Shown here piece after piece: positions 10,760 through 26,949 of a DNA stretch of 64,000 nt. A program made the translations under genes and the position numbers. Below the pieces are notes generated by a model. That model saw only the letters and a list, made by a program, of their open reading frames with translations, ran no database searches and was not told the origin of the DNA. Origin of the DNA: an uncultured Cycloclasticus sp. (GTDB lineage: Bacteria; Pseudomonadota; Gammaproteobacteria; Methylococcales; Cycloclasticaceae); the NCBI GenBank assembly GCA_913060865.1, contig CAJXTU010000006.1:19009-83008 (forward strand), in the 5' to 3' direction. Numbering within the stretch: position 1 is the stretch's first letter; the number at the start of each line of letters is the position of its first letter.

Positions 10760-11221
10760 TTAGAATGGAATATCGTCATCAAAATCATCCATTGGAGCTG
10801 TCGTAGGCTGCGCCGGTGCTGATGAGAAATTACTTGGCTTAGACGCCCCACCCGCTGGTGAAAATTCAGCTGAGCCACCGCCTCGGCTATCTAACATTTG
10901 CATGGTGCTGGCTTTTATTTCTGTGGTGTAGCGATCTTGCCCACTTTGGTCCTGCCATTTACGCGTTTGCAAAGCACCTTCCACATAGATTTTAGAGCCT
11001 TTTTTTAGATACTCTCCAACGACTTCAGCCAAGCGATTGAAAAACACCACTCGGTGCCATTCTGTCTGTTCCTTTTGCTCGCCTGTGTTTTTATCTTTCC
11101 ACGTTTCTGATGTTGCCACCGTTACATTTGCAACGGCTCCACCACTAGGCATGTAACGAATCTCAGGATCTTTACCTAAGTTACCCACCAAAATTACTTT
11201 ATTTACGCCTCTACTTGCCAT
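10760..11221 (-). CDS. ssb: Single-stranded DNA-binding protein
   Basis: [16 protein letters not shown] start with GGAG RBS; acidic tail DFDDDIPF. Confidence 0.98.
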
Positions 11222-11275
11222 GTCGTGCTCCGGTTGTTCTTGCCCCAATGGGGCTTGGGTTTAAATTTTGATTTA

Positions 11276-12685
11276 TCAGCCTATATTAAGCTCAGTCTCT
11301 TTGACCACAGGGATGATCGCATCCAGTGCCACTTCATCTAACAATTCATTGTCTACCTTTAGATAGGCAGTTGAATCATCAACCGAAATACCAACATCTA
11401 GCACCCCTTTTACCGCTAATAGCTTATCAGTTATTTGAGTTACTTGCTCAGCCGTTTCTACCTGTACATGTTTCAACAGGCTACTCATATGGCGTGGAGC
11501 TTTCATACTTAAAGCCACTAAGAACCAAACAAATAAAACAGAGGAACAGACCAAAAATACGTCTGCCAAACCATAATTACTCCATATCAGTCCACCCATT
11601 AAGCCGCCACAAAAAGCACCAAAAAACTGCGAGCTTGAATAAACACCCATCGCCGTCCCTTTACCACCGGCAAACGCTATTTTAGAGATCAACGAGGGCA
11701 GGCTTGCCTCTAATAAATTAAACGCGGTAAAAAACACAAATAAAGATACCAGCATGCCCCACAAGTGCCCACTAAATAAATACAAACCGAGGCTGGCCAA
11801 CGATAAGGTTGCTACGGCACTGACAAAAACGGCTTTCATCTTGCGCTTTTTTTCCGCGATAATTATAAATGGCACCATCGCAATAACAGACAAACCCAAA
11901 ACAGGCAAATACACCATCCAATGATCTTCCGCAGCAATACCTAATTTCCCCCGCATCAATAAGGGCAATACTACAAACATTGCTGTCATCACTAAGTGCA
12001 AACAAAAAATACCAAAATCAAGCCGTAATAACTGAGCATCCTTTAGCACTTTACCCATTAATGCGGGAATCGGTTCTGCATCTTTATGCACAGATATTTT
12101 TTTAGGTTGAGGCACCACCTTATGCAAGATGAGAATACCCATTATCGCCAAAACGGCTGTAAACCAAAAGATACCCTGTAAACCGACGACCGATGCTAGC
12201 AGTGGTCCAAGTACCATTGCGATACCAAATGAAATGCCAATGCTGATGCCAATCGTTGCCATTATTTTGGTGCGATTTTGCTCTAATGTTAAGTCGGCAG
12301 CCAATGCCATAATTGCCGCCGCAACTGCACCACTGCCCTGCAAGGCTCGGCCAATAATAATGCCGTATATCGTCGTTGACATGGCCGCCACCACACTGCC
12401 GGCAACAAATAACAATAGGCCAATAGTAATTATTTTTTTACGCCCAAAACGATCTGACATCAAACCAAATGGGATTTGTAATAGTGCCTGCGTTAAACCA
12501 TAAACACTGATAGACAGGCCCAGCAAAACAGGGGTAATGCCTTCGAGATGCTCGGTATACAAAGACATCACCGGCAAGATCATAAACAAGCCGAGCATAC
12601 GCATAGAAAAGATGCCCGCCAAACCTAAGCTGGCTCTTTTCTCTTGTTCACTCATGGTTGATGGTTGGACTGAAGAATCAGCCAT
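11276..12685 (-). CDS. MFS transporter, YajR-like, with C-terminal soluble domain
   Basis: RMLGLFMILPV, motif A SDRFGRK, 12 TMs, typical uvrA-MFS-ssb synteny. Confidence 0.88.
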   Translation of the reverse strand: MADSSVQPSTMSEQEKRASLGLAGIFSMRMLGLFMILPVMSLYTEHLEGITPVLLGLSISVYGLTQALLQIPFGLMSDRFGRKKIITIGLLLFVAGSVVAAMSTTIYGIIIGRALQGSGAVAAAIMALAADLTLEQNRTKIMATIGISIGISFGIAMVLGPLLASVVGLQGIFWFTAVLAIMGILILHKVVPQPKKISVHKDAEPIPALMGKVLKDAQLLRLDFGIFCLHLVMTAMFVVLPLLMRGKLGIAAEDHWMVYLPVLGLSVIAMVPFIIIAEKKRKMKAVFVSAVATLSLASLGLYLFSGHLWGMLVSLFVFFTAFNLLEASLPSLISKIAFAGGKGTAMGVYSSSQFFGAFCGGLMGGLIWSNYGLADVFLVCSSVLFVWFLVALSMKAPRHMSSLLKHVQVETAEQVTQITDKLLAVKGVLDVGISVDDSTAYLKVDNELLDEVALDAIIPVVKETELNIG

Positions 12686-12753: not shown

Positions 12754-15594
12754 ATGGACACTATTCAAATTCGCGGTGCAAGAACCCATAACTTAAAAGA
12801 AATTGACCTTGACCTGCCTCGAGATAAATTGATTGTTATCACGGGGCTATCCGGTTCTGGCAAATCTTCTTTAGCCTTCGACACCATTTACGCTGAGGGT
12901 CAGCGTCGTTATGTCGAATCGTTATCAGCCTATGCGAGACAGTTTTTGTCGGTGATGGAAAAGCCCGATGTCGACCACATTGAAGGCTTATCACCGGCTA
13001 TTTCTATTGAGCAAAAATCCACCTCTCATAACCCACGCTCAACAGTTGGGACGATTACAGAAATTTATGATTACTTACGGCTATTATTTGCCAGAACAGG
13101 TATTCCTCAATGCCCCGACCACGGCACCTCGTTAGAAGCGCAAACGATTACTCAAATGGTGGATTCTGTTCTCGCGCTTAACCCAAATAAACGCTGGATG
13201 TTATTAGCGCCTGTTATCCAAGAACGTAAAGGCGAACACTTTAATACGTTAAGTGATTTACGCAATCAAGGTTTTATTCGTGCACGTATTGATGGTGAAG
13301 TTGTTGAACTAGACGATGCTCCACCGTTAGAGTTAAAGAAGAAACACACCATAGAAGTTATCGTGGATCGATTCAAAATTCGTAACGATTTATCTACTCG
13401 ACTCGCCGAGTCTTTCGAAACGGCTTTAAAGCTCACCGAGGGCATTGCCGTCATCAGCAGCATAGATGATGACGAAGAAATTCTATTTTCCGCACGTTTT
13501 GCCTGCCCAACATGCGGATACAGCATCAGTGAATTAGAGCCACGAAGCTTCTCGTTTAACAGCCCAAAGGGGGCTTGCTCAAGCTGTGATGGCTTAGGCA
13601 TTAAACAATACATTGATTCTACACAAGTATTACATAGCCCCGATATTAGCCTTGCCGGTGGCGCTATCCGCGGTTGGGATAAGCGTAATATGTACTACTA
13701 CCAAATGGTCATGTCGCTGGCAAAACATTATCATTTTGATCCAGAAGAGCCGTTTAATTCTTACTCAGAAGAAATCCAACACGCTATTTTATTTGGTAGT
13801 GGTGATGAACCAATCAACTTTACAACACTCAACAGCCGGGGCGAATCAGTTAAACGTACTCACCCTTTTGAGGGTGTTATTCATAGTATGGAACGTCGCT
13901 ATCGTGAAACCGATTCGAGTACCGTGCGAGATGAATTGGCCAAGTACCTATCGAGCAAAGCCTGCCCAGACTGTCATGGCCAACGTTTAAACACCGCTGC
14001 TCGCCATGTCTTTGTTAATACGCACACCTTGCCTGCCATCACCAACCTTTCCATTCGCCAATCTAGCGCCCTATTTGCCTCTCTAGAACTTGCTGGGCAT
14101 CGTGGCGAAATCGCCAAAAAAATCATCAAGGAAATTAAAGCCCGTCTCGATTTTTTAATTAACGTGGGCTTAGACTACCTTTCGCTAGACCGAAGCGCAG
14201 ACACATTGTCGGGCGGCGAGGCTCAACGAATACGCCTAGCCAGCCAAATTGGTGCCGGGCTTGTAGGCGTTATGTATGTCTTAGATGAACCGTCCATTGG
14301 CTTGCACCAACGAGATAATCAACGCCTCATCAATACGCTGTTCCACCTGCGTGACATCGGCAATACCGTTATTGTTGTTGAACACGATGAAGATGCTATT
14401 TTAGCCGCTGACCATGTGGTTGATATTGGGCCAAAAGCTGGTATTCATGGCGGAGAAATTATTGCTCAAGGCACGCCACAGGAGATTATCAACAACCCCA
14501 ACTCGACAACCGGGCAATACCTGTCGGGGCAGCAATATATTGCCGTGCCAAACAAGCGCCACCAAGCCGATACGACAAAAAAGTTGCGCATTAATAATGC
14601 TCGCGCCAACAACTTAAAAAATGTTAGCGTTGATATCCCTATCGGTTTATTTACTTGCGTCACGGGCGTGTCTGGTTCAGGAAAATCAACCCTGATCAAC
14701 GAAACCTTGTACCCAACCGTCGCAAAAGTACTCAATAAATCATCGCTGCCCATCGCAGCCAATGATGGTGTTGATGGCTTAAAACAGATTGATAAAGTTG
14801 TCGACATCGATCAAAGCCCGATTGGCCGTACGCCTCGCTCAAACCCTGCCACTTATACGGGGCTTTTCACACCGATTCGGGAGCTATTTGCGGCAACCCC
14901 AGAAGCTCGATCACGCGGTTATACACCAGGCCGATTCAGCTTTAACGTAAAAGGTGGCCGCTGTGAAACCTGTAAAGGGGATGGCGTTATTAAGGTAGAA
15001 ATGCACTTTCTTGCCGATGTTTACGTCAATTGTGAAAGCTGTAAAGGCCAACGTTACGGTCGAGAAACCTTAGAGGTTCGCTATAAAGGCAAAACCATCC
15101 ACGAGGTACTGTCAATGACGGTTGAGGATGCCTGTGTATTTTTTGACGCCATACCCGTCATCTCTAGAAAACTCCAAACTCTAATGGACGTGGGGCTTGG
15201 CTATATCACCTTAGGACAAAATGCCGTCACCTTATCCGGTGGAGAGGCTCAGCGCGTGAAGCTATCTCGTGAATTATCGAAACGCGACACAGGCAAAACC
15301 TTATATATCCTTGATGAACCCACCACCGGCTTACACTTTGCCGATATTCAGCAGTTACTCACCGTTTTACATACGCTGCGTGACCACGGAAATACGCTCG
15401 TTGTTATTGAGCATAATCTCGATGTTATAAAAACGGCTGATTGGGTCATTGATATGGGTCCCGAAGGTGGCGATGGTGGCGGTCAAGTTATCGCTGAAGG
15501 CACGCCTGAAGCCGTTGCTCAATGTAGTGATTCTCACACGGGACATTACCTTAAAGACTTCCTAAGCAAAGCTATCAATAGCCAGTCGGCATAA
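12754..15594 (+). CDS. uvrA: Excinuclease ABC subunit A
   Basis: GARTHNLK, two Walker A ([16 protein letters not shown]), zinc fingers, two LSGGEAQR. Confidence 0.99.
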
Positions 15595-21786: not shown

Positions 21787-22449
21787 ATGGAGACTAACTT
21801 TTGGCATGAACGTTGGGCAAAAAGTGAAATTGGTTTTCACTTAAATGAAGTTAACCCGTATCTTATAAAGTACTTTGGTGCGCTCAAAAAGAAATCAAAG
21901 ACGTCTGTTTTTGTTCCCCTATGCGGAAAAAGCAAAGACCTTATCTGGTTGGCAGAACAAGTAGAGCACGTTATTGGTATTGAGTTGAGCAAAAAGGCCA
22001 TTGATGATTTTTTCAGTGAAAACAAGCTCACACCCTCGATTATTCAGCATGAGCGATTCATTGAGTATCGCTATGCAAATTTAACCCTACTATGCGGTGA
22101 CTTATTCCAACTAACAGCTGCTGATTTAACGGGCCACCATCTCGTTTACGACCGCGCATCGCTGATTGCCTTTCCACCGGAGATGCGCTCGAGTTATGTC
22201 AAAAAATTAGATGAAATATTGCCCAATAAAGCGCAGCGACTACTGATCACTGTTGACTATCCGCAACATGAAATGAAGGGCCCTCCCTTTTCAGTACCGC
22301 CCGACGAAGTACATCAGTATTTCTCTTCACGATATGATATTCAATGTTTGCAGTCTGAGGATATTCTAGATGCATCAAAACGCTTCAAAGATAGAGGCGT
22401 AACGCGCATGCTTGAACACGTTTTTTTACTAACCGACAAAACGGCTTAG
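21787..22449 (+). CDS. tpm: Thiopurine S-methyltransferase family protein
   Basis: FWHERW, IGFH, VFVPLCGKSKDL, YDRASLIA, GPPFSV. Confidence 0.9.
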   Translation: METNFWHERWAKSEIGFHLNEVNPYLIKYFGALKKKSKTSVFVPLCGKSKDLIWLAEQVEHVIGIELSKKAIDDFFSENKLTPSIIQHERFIEYRYANLTLLCGDLFQLTAADLTGHHLVYDRASLIAFPPEMRSSYVKKLDEILPNKAQRLLITVDYPQHEMKGPPFSVPPDEVHQYFSSRYDIQCLQSEDILDASKRFKDRGVTRMLEHVFLLTDKTA

Positions 22450-22459
22450 AGGAAAATAC

Positions 22460-22645
22460 TCAGCCTTCAGTGAGTAGCTTTTCAACAATATAAACACACA
22501 TGCCGCAAGCGACGTTAACTCGCGTTTTTTCTCTTACTTGTTCGAGTGTGTCTATACCTTCAGCCTTAATAACGCTTAAGAGCTTTTGTTTTGTGATGCC
22601 TGTACAACTGCAAATCACATCATCGTCTTTAAACTCATACGCCAT
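22460..22645 (-). CDS. BFD-like [2Fe-2S] protein
   Basis: ICSCTGIT...ACGMC cysteine pattern in 61 aa. Confidence 0.8.
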   Translation of the reverse strand: MAYEFKDDDVICSCTGITKQKLLSVIKAEGIDTLEQVREKTRVNVACGMCVYIVEKLLTEG

Positions 22646-22654
22646 CTTTTAGGC

Positions 22655-23362
22655 TCAGTGATCGTGCCCGCAACTTGACTCTGGTTCTGCCTCATAAGGG
22701 CTTTTACGTTTCGGCGTATTCATTCTGTATTGCACAAAATCTTGTACATTATGGTGATGTAAAAAAGGGTTACCCTTAATCTGCTCTTCTAGCGTGGATG
22801 TTTTCTTCACTGCATAATTATGCCCAGGCAAAATAGTGGTTGAACTAGGCAAATCGGTACGGATTTTATTCAGTGTTTTGAACATCACTTCTGGGTCACC
22901 ACCGGTAAAATCACACCGTCCACAGCCAAATACAAACATCGTATCCCCTGTTAATAACTGGTCGTCTACGTGGTAGCAGGTTGAACCCGGTGTATGCCCA
23001 GGTGTATGCAGCATTTTAATCGGCGTTTTACCCAACATGACTTCATCACCACCGTGATGCAAAGTGGGTGACCCTTCGTGCTCACCCCAAAATTCTGCTT
23101 CTTCTTTAAGCAGGTGAAGCTCTGCATCAAATACATTCAACACATCTGAAATGCCGTTGATATGATCAGGGTGACTATGCGTTAATAAAATATCCGTGAT
23201 TTTATATCCACGTTGATTGACTAACTCAATCGCCTTCGGTACATCCCAAGCAGGGTCAACGATTGCTGCTCGTTTAGTCGCATGGTCTTGTATCAGATAG
23301 ATAAAATTTTCCATTGGGCCAAGCTCCAATGCATCTATTGTATAATTTTTTTCAGTCATCAC
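22655..23362 (-). CDS. MBL-fold hydrolase (glyoxalase II-like)
   Basis: THSHPDH, HTPGHTPG, TGDTMF, PGH metal ligands. Confidence 0.88.
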   Translation of the reverse strand: MMTEKNYTIDALELGPMENFIYLIQDHATKRAAIVDPAWDVPKAIELVNQRGYKITDILLTHSHPDHINGISDVLNVFDAELHLLKEEAEFWGEHEGSPTLHHGGDEVMLGKTPIKMLHTPGHTPGSTCYHVDDQLLTGDTMFVFGCGRCDFTGGDPEVMFKTLNKIRTDLPSSTTILPGHNYAVKKTSTLEEQIKGNPFLHHHNVQDFVQYRMNTPKRKSPYEAEPESSCGHDH

Positions 23363-23381: not shown

Positions 23382-24959
23382 TTACAGTTCACGTGTCGCG
23401 CTAAAGGTAATATCTGGCCAACGCTCTTGTGTTAAAGATAAATTTACTCTCGTCTTCGCTAAATATACCAGATAACCACCGCCATCTTCAGCCAAGCTAT
23501 CGTGCGCCTTCTTTTTAAACTCTTCAAATTTTTTCGGATCGTCGCAACTCACCCAACGTGCCGCCGTTATCGGTGCATTGTCATACACGCACTCTACGTT
23601 ATATTCGCTTTTTAGACGTTGTGCGGTCACTTCAAACTGAAGCACCCCCACCGCACCCAGTATCAAATCATTATTTCTGAGTGGTTTAAACAGCTGTGTT
23701 GCGCCTTCTTCAGTCAATTGTGTGAGCCCTTTTTGAAGCGCTTTCATACGCAGTGGATCTTTTAAAACTGCGCGGCGAAATAGTTCCGGCGCGAAATAAG
23801 GAATACCACCAAATTTCAACTTCTCACCTTGCGTAAACGTATCACCAACTTGGATAGTCCCATGATTATGCAGCCCGATAATATCACCCGCAAAAGCCTG
23901 TTCTACATTTTTTCGACTATCGGCCTGAAAGGTAATCGCATTACCTATTTGAATATTTTTACCAATACGCACATGGCTCATTTTCATACCTTGCGAATAT
24001 TCACCTGAACAAATGCGCATAAACGCAATACGGTCACGATGTGCGGGATCCATATTTGCTTGAACTTTAAAAACAAAGCCAGTGAATTTTTCCTCTTCTG
24101 GCATCACTTCACGCTCAACTGCGTGTCGAGACTGAGGTGCAGGTGCGTACTCTGCAAAAGCATCCAGCAACTCCCCAACACCAAAGTTATTAACCGCAGA
24201 ACCAAAAAAAACGGGGGTTTGTTTGCCCGATAAATAAGCCTCTATATCGAAGGGTGTGCTGGCTTCGCGTACCAGTTCCAGCTCTTCAAAAAAGTCATCA
24301 ACCTCGTTACCCACTAGCTCTTTTAATTTTGGATCATCTAAGCCTTTAAATATTTCGCCGGTAGCAATTTTGCCGCCGTGTGTCGGGCTAAAGACGTGCA
24401 CCTCATCATTATAAAGGTGATAAACCCCTTTGAAACGCTTACCCATACCGATTGGCCAAGTCATTGGCGCGCATTCAATCTTTAGCACCGACTCAACCTC
24501 ATCAATCAACTCTAAAGGCTCACGCCCTTCTCGATCCAACTTATTGATAAAGGTAATAATGGGTGTATCGCGTAAACGACACACTTCCATTAATTTAATC
24601 GTTCGTGCTTCCACACCTTTAGCGCAATCTATCACCATTAATGCCGAGTCAACCGCGGTAAGCGTTCGATAGGTATCTTCAGAAAAGTCTTCGTGCCCTG
24701 GTGTATCCAGTAGATTCAGCAGCTTTTCATTATGCTCGAATTGCATCACAGAGGTGGTAATCGAAATACCTCGCTCTTGCTCCATTTCCATCCAATCTGA
24801 CGTTGCATGACGTGATGCTTTGCGCCCTTTAACGGAACCTGCGACCTGAATCGCGCCCCCAAACAGCAACAATTTTTCGGTCAGTGTCGTTTTACCCGCA
24901 TCGGGGTGGGAGATGATGGCGAACGTTCGCCGTTTTTTGAATTCGTTAGACATGCTCAT
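23382..24959 (-). CDS. prfC: Peptide chain release factor 3
   Basis: [37 protein letters not shown]. Confidence 0.98.
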
Positions 24960-25029
24960 TGAATACTCACAATAATGTCTGGGCATTATACGGCAAGCGA
25001 TTGTGAGCTAATAATTCTTAAAGCGGTTT

Positions 25030-25530
25030 TTAAGCAGGATTTACTGTTAAATCCAATGAGAGAACGATAGCATCTTCTTTACCATCGGCGGCTGGGTAAT
25101 AATTTTTGCGTTGGCCGATTTGTTTAAATCCGGCTTTTTTATACAGTTTAACCGCCGCTGTATTGGAAGGACGAACCTCTAAAAAAATACTGTCAGCATT
25201 TTTTTTCTTCGCCACGCCTATTAACTCTACTAGAAACTGTTGCCCAAGCCCTTGGCCTTTATATAAAGGATCTAAACAAATGTTTAAGATATGCGCTTCG
25301 CCCACCGCTACAGATAAAATCGCGTAACCTATAAATTGATCATCTTTAATAAATGCCCAGTTTGAATACCCCACATTAAGACAGTCTCTGAAAATACCCT
25401 CACTCCACGGGTAGTTGTACATTTGCCGCTCTATCGACATCACTGCGGCAATATCCTGTTCTTTTAACGAGCGAATATACAGTGGTTTTTTCTTAACAAT
25501 CCCTAATAAGCTTTGTAATCTACCCCACAT
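25030..25530 (-). CDS. rimI: Ribosomal protein S18 N-acetyltransferase
   Basis: EAHILNICL, GQGLG, FLEVRPSN, RKNYYP, EDAIV. Confidence 0.95.
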   Translation of the reverse strand: MWGRLQSLLGIVKKKPLYIRSLKEQDIAAVMSIERQMYNYPWSEGIFRDCLNVGYSNWAFIKDDQFIGYAILSVAVGEAHILNICLDPLYKGQGLGQQFLVELIGVAKKKNADSIFLEVRPSNTAAVKLYKKAGFKQIGQRKNYYPAADGKEDAIVLSLDLTVNPA

Positions 25531-26203
25531 GACGATTATTAACGATGTTGCTCGCTAACTGCATAGCATCCCATGCCTGTGCTTTAGCCAAGGGGGACTC
25601 TAACAAATAACGAGGATGATGAGTGACTACAATCAGCGGAGAAATATCATCCACCCGCTGTGCTTTGCCTATAAGGGTCGCGAACGTACCATCTGACTTA
25701 AGCAAGCTTTGAGCTGCCTGCTCACCTAATACTAAAATCACCGCCGGGTTCACTAACTCAATTTGGCGGAGCAAATAAGGTCTACATGATGATAACGCTG
25801 CTTGGCCTGAGTCGGCACTCACTGCATAACACTTAACACTATTTGTTAAATAGCTGTCCGATTCTTTAATACCAATAGCTAACAACATTTCTGATAATAA
25901 ACGAGCCGCATTACTTGTGAACGGCCGACCTTGAAAGTCGTCTTCTTCTGATGGAAAATCACCCACTATTAGCCAATCCGCTTGCACCGGACCATCACCA
26001 AACACGACTTGCTTTCGCGTTGTTGACGCATCACAACGTTGACAGTCTGTTGCTAACGTATGAAGCTCTGCAAGACTCTCAGCTTCAAGGCCTAAATTTT
26101 CATTATCGACATCGGGCGCCTGTGTCTCATGCCTCCCTCTTTCCTGCCAAACTTGAACACCCATAGTATCCAAGTACTCTAACTGCCTAGCTGATATTGT
26201 CAT
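25520..26203 (-). CDS. Family-4 uracil-DNA glycosylase-like [4Fe-4S] protein with degenerate catalytic motif and a psi(HolD)-like N-terminus
   Basis: CQRC, VKC and CRPYL cysteines; HHPRYLL; motif A reads GDFPS instead of GE(A/G)PG; N-terminus RQLEYLDTMGVQVWQER. Confidence 0.75.
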   Translation of the reverse strand: MTISARQLEYLDTMGVQVWQERGRHETQAPDVDNENLGLEAESLAELHTLATDCQRCDASTTRKQVVFGDGPVQADWLIVGDFPSEEDDFQGRPFTSNAARLLSEMLLAIGIKESDSYLTNSVKCYAVSADSGQAALSSCRPYLLRQIELVNPAVILVLGEQAAQSLLKSDGTFATLIGKAQRVDDISPLIVVTHHPRYLLESPLAKAQAWDAMQLASNIVNNRHVG

Positions 26204-26949
26204 TCAGGTGTTTCGACCTTCTTTTCTCGCCGCCTGCGCCTTAACAAGCTCATCGTTAGTGCAATACCTGAGAGCGCATACGCCAAACAAACAATAAACA
26301 ATACCAACGGGGGAGCCGCGTAAATTAGCGCTAAGACCAGCATCACTATCACCGCAACAACAAAGGGAACTTTACCTGTAAAGTTAAGCTCCTTAAAACT
26401 GTGATATCGAATATTACTCACCATTAATAAGCCAGCACATAAGGTCACCAATGAAAGACCAATGGTTTCTACAGTACCGGAGAGCTGATAATCTTCCATT
26501 AACCAGATATAACCCGCTACCAGTGCAGCAGCAGCTGGGCTGGCTAAGCCTTGAAAATACCGTTTATCGGCTGTACTGTGCTGCACATTAAAGCGTGCCA
26601 AACGCAGCGCCCCACACGTTGCATAAACAAAAGCAACAATCCAACCAAATTTGCCGAACGATGATAGCCCCCAAGAATAAGCCAACGCAGCAGGAGCAAC
26701 GCCAAATGAAACGAGATCTGCCAAACTATCGTACTGCGCACCAAATTCGCTTTGTGTATTTGTCATTCGTGCCACTCGACCATCAAGGCCATCCAGCACC
26801 ATCGCAATAAAAATAGCGATAACCGATATTTCAAAATGCTCATTAATCGCACCCGTAATGGCATAAAAACCAGCGAATAAAGCACTTGTTGTAAACAGGT
26901 TTGGCAATAAATAAAGCCCTTTTGACGGCTGTTTTTTTGTTTCTTTCAT
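26200..26949 (-). CDS. pssA: CDP-diacylglycerol--serine O-phosphatidyltransferase
   Basis: LPNLFT, DGLDGRVAR...FGAQYDSLADLVSFGVAPA, LRLARFN. Confidence 0.95.
   Translation of the reverse strand: MKETKKQPSKGLYLLPNLFTTSALFAGFYAITGAINEHFEISVIAIFIAMVLDGLDGRVARMTNTQSEFGAQYDSLADLVSFGVAPAALAYSWGLSSFGKFGWIVAFVYATCGALRLARFNVQHSTADKRYFQGLASPAAAALVAGYIWLMEDYQLSGTVETIGLSLVTLCAGLLMVSNIRYHSFKELNFTGKVPFVVAVIVMLVLALIYAAPPLVLFIVCLAYALSGIALTMSLLRRRRREKKVETPE

Follow-up and report, generated by a model that had tools for sequence, protein, structure and literature searches.

Why does a gene for a protein with the uracil-DNA glycosylase (UDG) fold stand in Cycloclasticus where Escherichia coli keeps holD, the gene of the clamp-loader protein psi? 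The case arises in a 64,000-nucleotide stretch of DNA from an uncultured Cycloclasticus sp. (contig CAJXTU010000006.1, positions 19,009 to 83,008), which we refer to as the window. The gene encodes a 227-residue protein with the UDG fold, called X here. An original prediction, made from the letters of the window, had linked X to psi. We favor, with a moderate degree of confidence, the interpretation that X is a psi-like accessory protein of the clamp loader built on a UDG scaffold, and that it probably has little or no glycosylase activity. X bridges two known families, psi and the family-4 UDGs.

X occupies the position of holD

X and the genes next to it are:
25520..26203, minus strand: X, UDG-fold protein of 227 amino acids (aa), N-terminus MTISARQLEYLDTMGVQVWQERGRHETQAPDVDNENLGLEAES
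26200-26949, minus strand: pssA, upstream of X (NCBIfam TIGR00473, 139.8 bits)
25030-25530, minus strand: rimI, downstream of X (NCBIfam TIGR01575, 136.8 bits against a cutoff of 86.4)
23382-24986, minus strand: prfC, encoding RF3, downstream of rimI (open reading frame and translation; the homologue in the Cycloclasticus locus L001 has the RF3 Pfam domains)

The minus-strand gene order in the window is ilvI-ilvH-ilvC-pssA-X-rimI-prfC. The stop codon of pssA overlaps the start codon of X in the sequence ATGA, and the end of X overlaps rimI, with the X stop located 11 nucleotides inside rimI. The annotated order in E. coli K-12 is holD-rimI-yjjG-prfC, with an overlap of 32 nucleotides between holD and rimI. 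The placement of X at the holD position in the original prediction is borne out by this comparison, as X lies directly upstream of rimI and near prfC, like holD of E. coli K-12, and both genes overlap rimI. Neither holC nor a canonical holD was found within the 64-kb window, to which the search was confined. A promoter and terminator scan of the region from 23 to 31 kb returned promoter-like sites at about the level of shuffled sequence, and terminator-like sites only slightly above it. Public proteins nearly identical to X are named 'uracil-DNA glycosylase [Cycloclasticus sp.]', and a homologue with 56% identity is present in the cultured C. pugetii, C. zancles, and strain P1.

The N-terminal peptide resembles that of psi

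The part of X that precedes the globular domain is divided into two segments:
26138..26203, minus strand: psi-like N-terminal peptide, codons 1-22, MTISARQLEYLDTMGVQVWQER, the proposed DnaX-collar docking element
26069..26137, minus strand: linker, codons 23-45, short and poorly conserved, with a predicted local distance difference test score (pLDDT) of 54-61

The AlphaFold2 (AF2) model of X contains a helix at residues 5-13, comparable to the helix at residues 4-11 of psi. The linker is net acidic, with six Asp or Glu residues against one Arg and one His, and its length in relatives ranges from ~20 to >200 residues. Among 26 aligned homologues, the beta- and gamma-proteobacterial family-4 UDGs start with the motif YLxAMGIxVWxxR. 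Annotated psi proteins of Vibrio and Photobacterium start with YLxEMGIxxWxL, and the N-terminus of a Nevskiales UDG, YLKAMGITQWRRR, can be set against that of E. coli psi, LQQLGITQWSLRR.

For hidden Markov model (HMM) searches, 75 diverse HolD proteins of the canonical type were aligned. Positions 3-22 of the full HolD HMM align to the extreme N-termini of dozens of peptide-bearing UDGs, and residues 6-23 of X match HMM positions 4-21. A second HMM of 24 columns, limited to the HolD N-terminus, was searched against the 2807 open reading frames (ORFs) of the window and all loci, 634,542 residues in total. The top 30 of the 947 domain matches all come from this UDG family, as do 54 of the top 60, and 39 of the 87 family members score better than the best unrelated ORF. 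The psi-like N-terminal peptide that had been claimed for X is thereby upheld for its family, whose N-termini rank as the top 30 among the 2807 ORFs, while X itself scores weakly. Despite the weak score of its own, the N-peptide of X plainly shares the family consensus when the sequences are aligned.

Some public gene calls of X-type proteins (214 or 209 aa, named 'DNA polymerase') start at Met14 (window 26164-26203, minus strand). The conserved N-peptide is therefore clipped from these entries and invisible in the annotation.

The globular domains of X and psi align co-linearly in profile comparison

The matches of the full HolD HMM on UDGs follow one another in the same order in both proteins. 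After the N-peptide, HMM positions 40-81 fall on residues 76-120, which form β1 and αA, and positions 58-127 fall on residues 143-214. The per-sequence P values reach 1e-7 and are best in the window's own clade, including a later clade relative, P0443, with 5e-8. A P value below 1e-3 was obtained for 44 of 121 real sequences against 3 of 726 shuffled or reversed ones. Among the 56 ORFs of the window, the HolD HMM singles out X with P=5.7e-5, the next best ORF having 0.018. Using hhalign, the HolD profile aligns co-linearly and over its full length with that of the Cycloclasticus clade at a probability of 54% (E 1.3e-4), and with that of the N-peptide family-4 UDGs with intact motifs at 64% (E 6.7e-5). 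The clearest aligned block of HolD and X lies just after motif 2 of the glycosylase (psi, LRANPTARAALWQQI; X, LLESPLAKAQAWDAM). Although the HolD-X alignment was built from sequence only, 62 of the 73 helix or strand residues of psi, and 19 of its 20 strand residues, are placed on residues that the AF2 model assigns to the same class in X. Circular shifting of the alignment as a control gave an agreement of 26 ± 7 residues, with a maximum of 42. The Pfam model of psi, PF03603, weakly matches residues 75-145 of the clade relative P0053 (E=0.049; 14.3 bits, below the cutoff of 22.2).

Psi is not among the top 50 Foldseek matches of the X model. In the converse search with a psi model, the family-4 UDG 4ZBY has the highest TM-score of the non-self matches. 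Judging from these models, fold search alone neither proves nor refutes a link between psi and UDGs. A published remark on a likeness of psi to the fold of the glycosylase MUG was not traced in the literature searched, and MUG does not appear in the top 50 of the psi-model search.

The C-terminal 'K..AW.DL' helix was considered as a possible signature of chi binding that accompanies the N-peptide, and this was rejected, as it is present in 21 of 52 family-4 UDGs without the N-peptide (from Planctomycetota, Treponema, and others). By its distribution among these sequences, the helix seems to be an ancestral feature of family-4 UDGs that psi inherited.

X keeps the UDG fold and iron-sulfur ligands with altered catalytic loops

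The globular domain of X and its motifs are:
25523..26068, minus strand: family-4 UDG-fold domain, codons 46-227 (PF03167; AF2; Foldseek)
25784..26044, minus strand: span of the Fe-S ligand cysteines (C54 at 26042-26044, C57 at 26033-26035, C125 at 25829-25831, C140 at 25784-25786)
25949..25963, minus strand: remnant of motif 1, G81-D-F-P-S85 (family consensus GE(A/G)PG; GEGPG in Thermus thermophilus)
25802..25828, minus strand: codons 126-134, YAVSADSGQ, in place of the RPPxNRxP loop of motif 3, from the T. thermophilus alignment
25614..25619, minus strand: motif 2, H196-P197, kept and aligned to H155-P156 of T. thermophilus

The Pfam UDG model PF03167 matches residues 68-213 of X with E=3e-27, and the score of X with the NCBIfam model of UDG family 4, TIGR00758, is 121.1 bits, just below the cutoff of 125.3. 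The AF2 model of X has a mean pLDDT of 90.5, rising to ~95 across the UDG domain. Foldseek aligns it to UdgX and to the UDG structures 1UI0, 4ZBY, 1L9G, and 1VK2 at E~1e-17 and TM-scores of 0.68-0.74.

We mapped the residues of X onto T. thermophilus UDGa (1UI0), the numbering of which is denoted Tth, and took the roles of residues in the family-4 pocket from PMC10776899. The cysteines C54, C57, C125, and C140 of X correspond to Tth C13, C16, C84, and C100. All four are kept, and are predicted from the sequence to be a [4Fe-4S]-type set. F95 of X corresponds to the stacking phenylalanine Tth F54, and N121 and K124 to N80 and K83 of motif 3; N80 is the uracil-recognising asparagine, and all three residues are kept. 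The PFVG segment of the T. thermophilus enzyme is changed to PFTS in X, and KCRPPxNRxP to KCYAVSADSG. We rejected the possibility that the lost 'NR' of KCRPPxNRxP contained the uracil-binding asparagine, as the Tth mapping and PMC10776899 assign this role to N80, retained in X as N121. The motif changes listed in the original prediction are accurate for the four cysteines, the motif histidine, GDFPS, and PFTS, whereas more of the pocket is kept (N121, F95, H196) than that description implied.

Catalytic positions drift within the Cycloclasticus clade

We compared alignment columns between 22 sequences of the Cycloclasticus clade and 103 other family-4 UDGs, using Tth numbering. Position 41 is Asp in 20 of the 22 clade members and Glu in 87 of the 103 others, 15 of which have Asp. 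Position 42 is Phe in 19/22, against Ala or Gly in 100/103, and position 44 is Ser or Thr in all 22, against Gly in 89/103. The clade changes also include V55T, and G40 and K83 are kept. The stacking F54 is replaced by Leu in nine of the 22 clade members, cultured species among them, N80 is lost in five, and the motif-2 histidine H155 is kept in 19 and lost in three. The RPP, NR, and P of the motif-3 loop are lost and variable across the clade. The Fe-S cysteines are kept in 21-22 of the 22 members. Since near-invariant catalytic positions are altered and differ among clade members, the changes do not constitute a new conserved motif.

In a set of 17 Cycloclasticus-related sequences with an overall mean pairwise identity of 0.47, the mean pairwise identities of individual segments are:
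N-peptide: 0.68
β2 / N..KC segment: 0.72
long helix: 0.68
β3: 0.68
former RPP/NR loop: 0.16
linker: 0.18

At the level of sequence comparison, these values indicate that selection has relaxed on catalysis and continues on the N-peptide, the Fe-S site, and the core.

Proteins with further losses were found near the clade. The motif-1 loop is deleted in the sister lineage P0053/P0057. The same loop is missing from P0435-P0443, and together these are further-decayed marine Cycloclasticus-related proteins, one of the sources being the metagenome-assembled genome of a sponge symbiont. None of the four Fe-S cysteines remains in P0087, a protein from Oceanococcus. As read from the alignments, P0053/P0057, P0435-P0443, and P0087 make up a series that approaches the state of psi by degrees. 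A homologue search with the motif-1-deleted P0053 returned only further Cycloclasticus-type proteins and no bridging protein annotated as PF03603. Separately, the proteins of a Leucothrix/Thiotrichaceae subgroup (loci L060 and L066; proteins P0018-P0024), which are 300-330 aa long, keep KCRPPNNRDP and have changed motifs GDAPK and PFMDRSG. From its motifs, this looks like a second, independent, and partial change of the pocket.

Peptide-bearing UDGs are widespread in beta- and gamma-proteobacteria

A locus scan with one genome per species provided 80 loci, which were tabulated together with six earlier ones. Of these 86 loci, ~78 encode the N-peptide and ~72 have rimI on the same strand. The hosts of the 80 loci include basal gamma-proteobacteria (Thiothrix, Methylococcaceae, Chromatiaceae, Steroidobacteraceae, Nevskiales, Legionella, Thioalkalivibrio, and Woeseia), beta-proteobacteria (Burkholderia, Bordetella, Nitrosospira, Gallionella, Thiobacillus, and Rubrivivax), and Acidithiobacillus. 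In the gamma loci, rimI is directly downstream of the UDG gene and is often followed by prfC. The order in the beta loci is tsaB-rimI-UDG, with rimI directly preceding the UDG gene. UDGs of the Chloroflexota type (~200 aa) have no N-terminal extension, and the peptide is absent from the non-proteobacterial family-4 UDGs examined. The combination of peptide and UDG domain is, by these sequences, a widespread beta- and gamma-proteobacterial family and not private to the Cycloclasticus window.

Most peptide-bearing UDGs in the alignment of 26 homologues keep perfect GEAPG, PFVGxAG, and KCRPPxNRDP motifs. Judging from their sequences, the N-peptide family members with intact motifs are probably uracil glycosylases tethered to the clamp loader, which may double as psi.

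The N-peptide of the beta-proteobacterial proteins has one extra residue, LxEMGLxPVWRLR (loci L003, L029, L032, L035, L041, L045, L050, L062, L079, and others). The spacing between the peptide and the CxxC motif is often longer in the beta loci, up to ~155 residues, compared to ~30-120 in most gamma loci.

Proposed function of X and rival explanations

The reading frame of X, its gene neighborhood, its fold, and the state of its motifs are observed, as are the relation of the N-peptide to psi at the family level, the co-linear profile alignment, and the conservation pattern. Binding to DnaX and chi, the loss of activity, and the direction of evolution are inferred. The first ~22 residues of X, a helix followed by GVQVW, would dock in the DnaX3-delta-delta' collar, in the manner of residues 2-28 of E. 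coli psi, the binding of which to the DnaX collar in 3GLI is established (summarised in PMC3290774 and PMC11044049). The acidic linker of ~20 residues would tether the Fe-S UDG-fold domain to the clamp loader. The uracil pocket of this domain would no longer be under selection, in which case the domain would act mainly as an accessory or adaptor, binding DNA and/or chi, and not as an efficient glycosylase. X would be co-transcribed and translationally coupled with rimI, as holD is. The gene position, the N-peptide, the co-linear HolD alignment, and the drift of the catalytic loops next to a conserved peptide speak for the psi link. Of the two alternatives put forward in the original prediction, a psi equivalent that is losing glycosylase activity is favored for the Cycloclasticus clade, and a replisome-tethered UDG better fits the beta- and gamma-proteobacterial relatives with intact motifs.

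Several observations weigh against a psi-like role of X with little or no catalysis. X keeps N121, F95, K124, and H196, and its E-to-D replacement is conservative; with such a pocket sequence, residual or altered glycosylase activity is possible. The Fe-S ligands of X are under selection, and psi has no need of them. The N-peptide of X itself scores weakly with the HolD N-terminus HMM, at 2.2 bits and rank 60, and judged by these profile scores the link of the peptide to psi is strong only at the family level. The homology between the bodies of psi and X is of moderate probability (54-64% in hhalign), and the probability for HolD against UDGs without the peptide is 8% (E 4e-3). No curated psi model (PF03603, TIGR00664, PRK06856) matches X at E<=1. 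In the Foldseek search with the psi model, only psi is significant, and the family-4 UDG 4ZBY has rank 27 and E=1.1.

The retained pocket residues could also belong to a glycosylase that is still active, on uracil or with altered specificity, with a retuned pocket and with the psi-like peptide as its attachment to the clamp loader, in a bacterial analogue of UNG2-PCNA coupling. The preservation of F95, N121, K124, the His-Pro pair, and the four Fe-S cysteines agrees with such an enzyme, as do the mildness of the E-to-D change and a fold predicted at high confidence. Most peptide-bearing relatives have fully intact motifs, and tethered catalysis is therefore probably the ancestral state. We nevertheless consider continued activity of X unlikely, because positions that are near-invariant in the 103 UDGs have been altered, and not uniformly even between close clade members (F54L in 9/22, N80 lost in 5/22, H155 in 3/22, loop identity 0.16), and the sister lineage is without the motif-1 loop. 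This is a pattern of relaxed constraint rather than of a new conserved specificity. Moreover, a bulky Phe takes the place of the small residue of GE(A/G)PG, which probably lines the pocket.

It is quite improbable that X is simply one of the ordinary family-4 UDGs, with some divergence, an extension that is used otherwise, as an intramolecular cap or for another partner, and a psi likeness and rimI position that are due to coincidence or shared regulation. The public annotation as uracil-DNA glycosylase, the 2.2 bits of the X peptide, and the absence of a psi model matching X fit this explanation. However, the family-level N-terminal signal is overwhelming and specific, filling the top 30 places among 2807 ORFs, family-4 UDGs from outside the proteobacteria do not have the peptide, the rimI neighbor and overlap are as for holD, and the body also aligns co-linearly with psi. 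Furthermore, psi of E. coli and Pseudomonas likewise has its peptide at the extreme N-terminus, with a variable linker after it (PMC3197488). The degenerate catalytic motifs could finally mark X as a functionless, decaying relic en route to loss. We give very little credence to this, since the reading frame is intact in ~30 sequences of 37-99% identity, the N-peptide, Fe-S ligands, β2/N..KC segment, long helix, and β3 are strongly conserved (0.68-0.72), and the gene is translationally coupled within an operon. A psi-like accessory protein on a UDG scaffold remains our preferred interpretation of X.

Comparison of X with psi and with glycosylases of known function

Psi (HolD; PF03603, TIGR00664; structures 1EM8, 3SXU, 3GLI) resembles X in its gene, which directly precedes and overlaps rimI and has prfC further downstream. 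At the extreme N-terminus of both proteins, a helix and a G-[IV]-x-x-W peptide lead into a flexible segment, and the globular parts align co-linearly through β1-αA-β2-β3-β4 and two C-terminal helices. The psi segment 'LRxNPxAKRxLWQQI' is aligned to 'LLxSPxAKxxAWDxL' of X. Psi differs from X in its length (137 against 227 aa) and in having neither the four cysteines nor the long central helix nor the Fe-S helix region at the N-terminus.

The family-4 UDGs (1UI0; 1L9G/1VK2 from T. maritima; 4ZBY from S. tokodaii) and UdgX (6AJO) share with X the fold, the Fe-S cysteines, the Asn and Lys of motif 3, the His-Pro pair, and the stacking Phe. X differs from the family-4 enzymes in its GDFPS and PFTS motifs, the replacement of the RPPxNRxP loop, and its score under the NCBIfam cutoff. 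The crystallised thermophile and archaeal UDGs lack the psi-like peptide and linker of X.

A 'cryptic' long psi of pseudomonads was reportedly described by Jarvis et al. in 2005, and was treated by El Houry Mignan et al. in 2011 (PMC3197488). Compared by description only, this protein resembles X in its conserved extreme N-terminus, disordered spacer, and a core larger than that of E. coli psi. The pseudomonad core contains insertions, the protein is undetectable by simple similarity, and its long disordered region binds single-stranded DNA (PMC3197488), for which no counterpart is known in X. The recruitment of a UDG fold to replication by a terminal peptide or in a scaffold role, as proposed for X, has precedents in human UNG2, which binds PCNA and RPA (PMC8053108), and in the vaccinia D4 UDG, a catalysis-independent subunit of a processivity factor (PMC1936997). 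D4 is an example of a UDG fold whose service to replication does not depend on catalysis. Unlike X, UNG2 and D4 are family-1 enzymes with other partners (PCNA/RPA and A20, respectively), and the likeness is one of analogy and not of tether homology.

The literature searched, with most subscription papers outside its scope, contained no psi-UDG superfamily link and no description of a psi-like extension on bacterial family-4 UDGs, including in a 2022 review of the non-catalytic parts of glycosylases. It is probable that psi descends from the N-peptide UDG family, and that the canonical psi of 137 aa is an extreme product of its decay. We tentatively propose a wider scheme, which we hold less firmly than the assignment of X: psi is a decayed family-4 UDG, the rimI-adjacent N-peptide UDGs are the psi equivalents of beta- and basal gamma-proteobacteria and are mostly also active glycosylases, and the Cycloclasticus protein is a living intermediate between an enzyme and a pure adaptor.

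Other genes near X and holD

In E. coli K-12, yjjG (4608646-4609323) is located between rimI and prfC; it is not part of the Cycloclasticus operon. The gene encodes a pyrimidine 5'-nucleotidase that cleans non-canonical pyrimidine nucleotides, and a uracil-related housekeeping gene is thus situated beside holD.

Two stretches of the window downstream of prfC, and the genes from ssb to uvrA, were also inspected:
22460-23362, minus strand, and 21787-22449, plus strand: downstream of prfC, with genes for an MBL-fold hydrolase and for a BFD-like [2Fe-2S] protein of 61 aa, and with a divergent gene of the thiopurine-methyltransferase family
10760-11248, minus strand: ssb
11276-12685, minus strand: MFS transporter gene, between ssb and uvrA
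12754-15594, plus strand: uvrA, divergent from the nearby ssb

The MBL-fold hydrolase, BFD-like protein, and thiopurine-methyltransferase-family genes also follow prfC in the Cycloclasticus locus L001. The arrangement of ssb near a divergent uvrA is found in E. coli as well. The tail of the protein encoded by the window ssb, DDFDDDIPF, is canonical, and a tail of this type is what chi recognises in E. coli. The tail is generic and is by itself no indication that chi is present.

Implications for the bacterial replicase

Psi ties chi to the clamp loader, is recognised in only some gamma-proteobacteria, and to our knowledge has no known relatives; the UDG family offers an origin for it. Chi (HolC) occurs in alpha-, beta-, and gamma-proteobacteria, and psi has been recognised only in gamma-proteobacteria (PMC3290774). 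Robinson, Causer and Dixon asked in 2012 whether psi is missing elsewhere or has diverged beyond detection (PMC3290774). The rimI-adjacent 'uracil-DNA glycosylase' is a concrete and testable candidate for the 'missing' psi of many proteobacteria, and X makes this old question about the replicase directly testable. In annotation, the rimI-adjacent genes all carry the name uracil-DNA glycosylase or 'DNA polymerase', and the key peptide is sometimes clipped. Psi is essential in Pseudomonas aeruginosa and Acinetobacter baylyi (PMC3290774), and divergent psi biology is therefore of practical interest. If the family members with intact motifs are active, they would provide a direct link between the clamp loader and uracil excision in bacteria, analogous to that between human UNG2 and PCNA.

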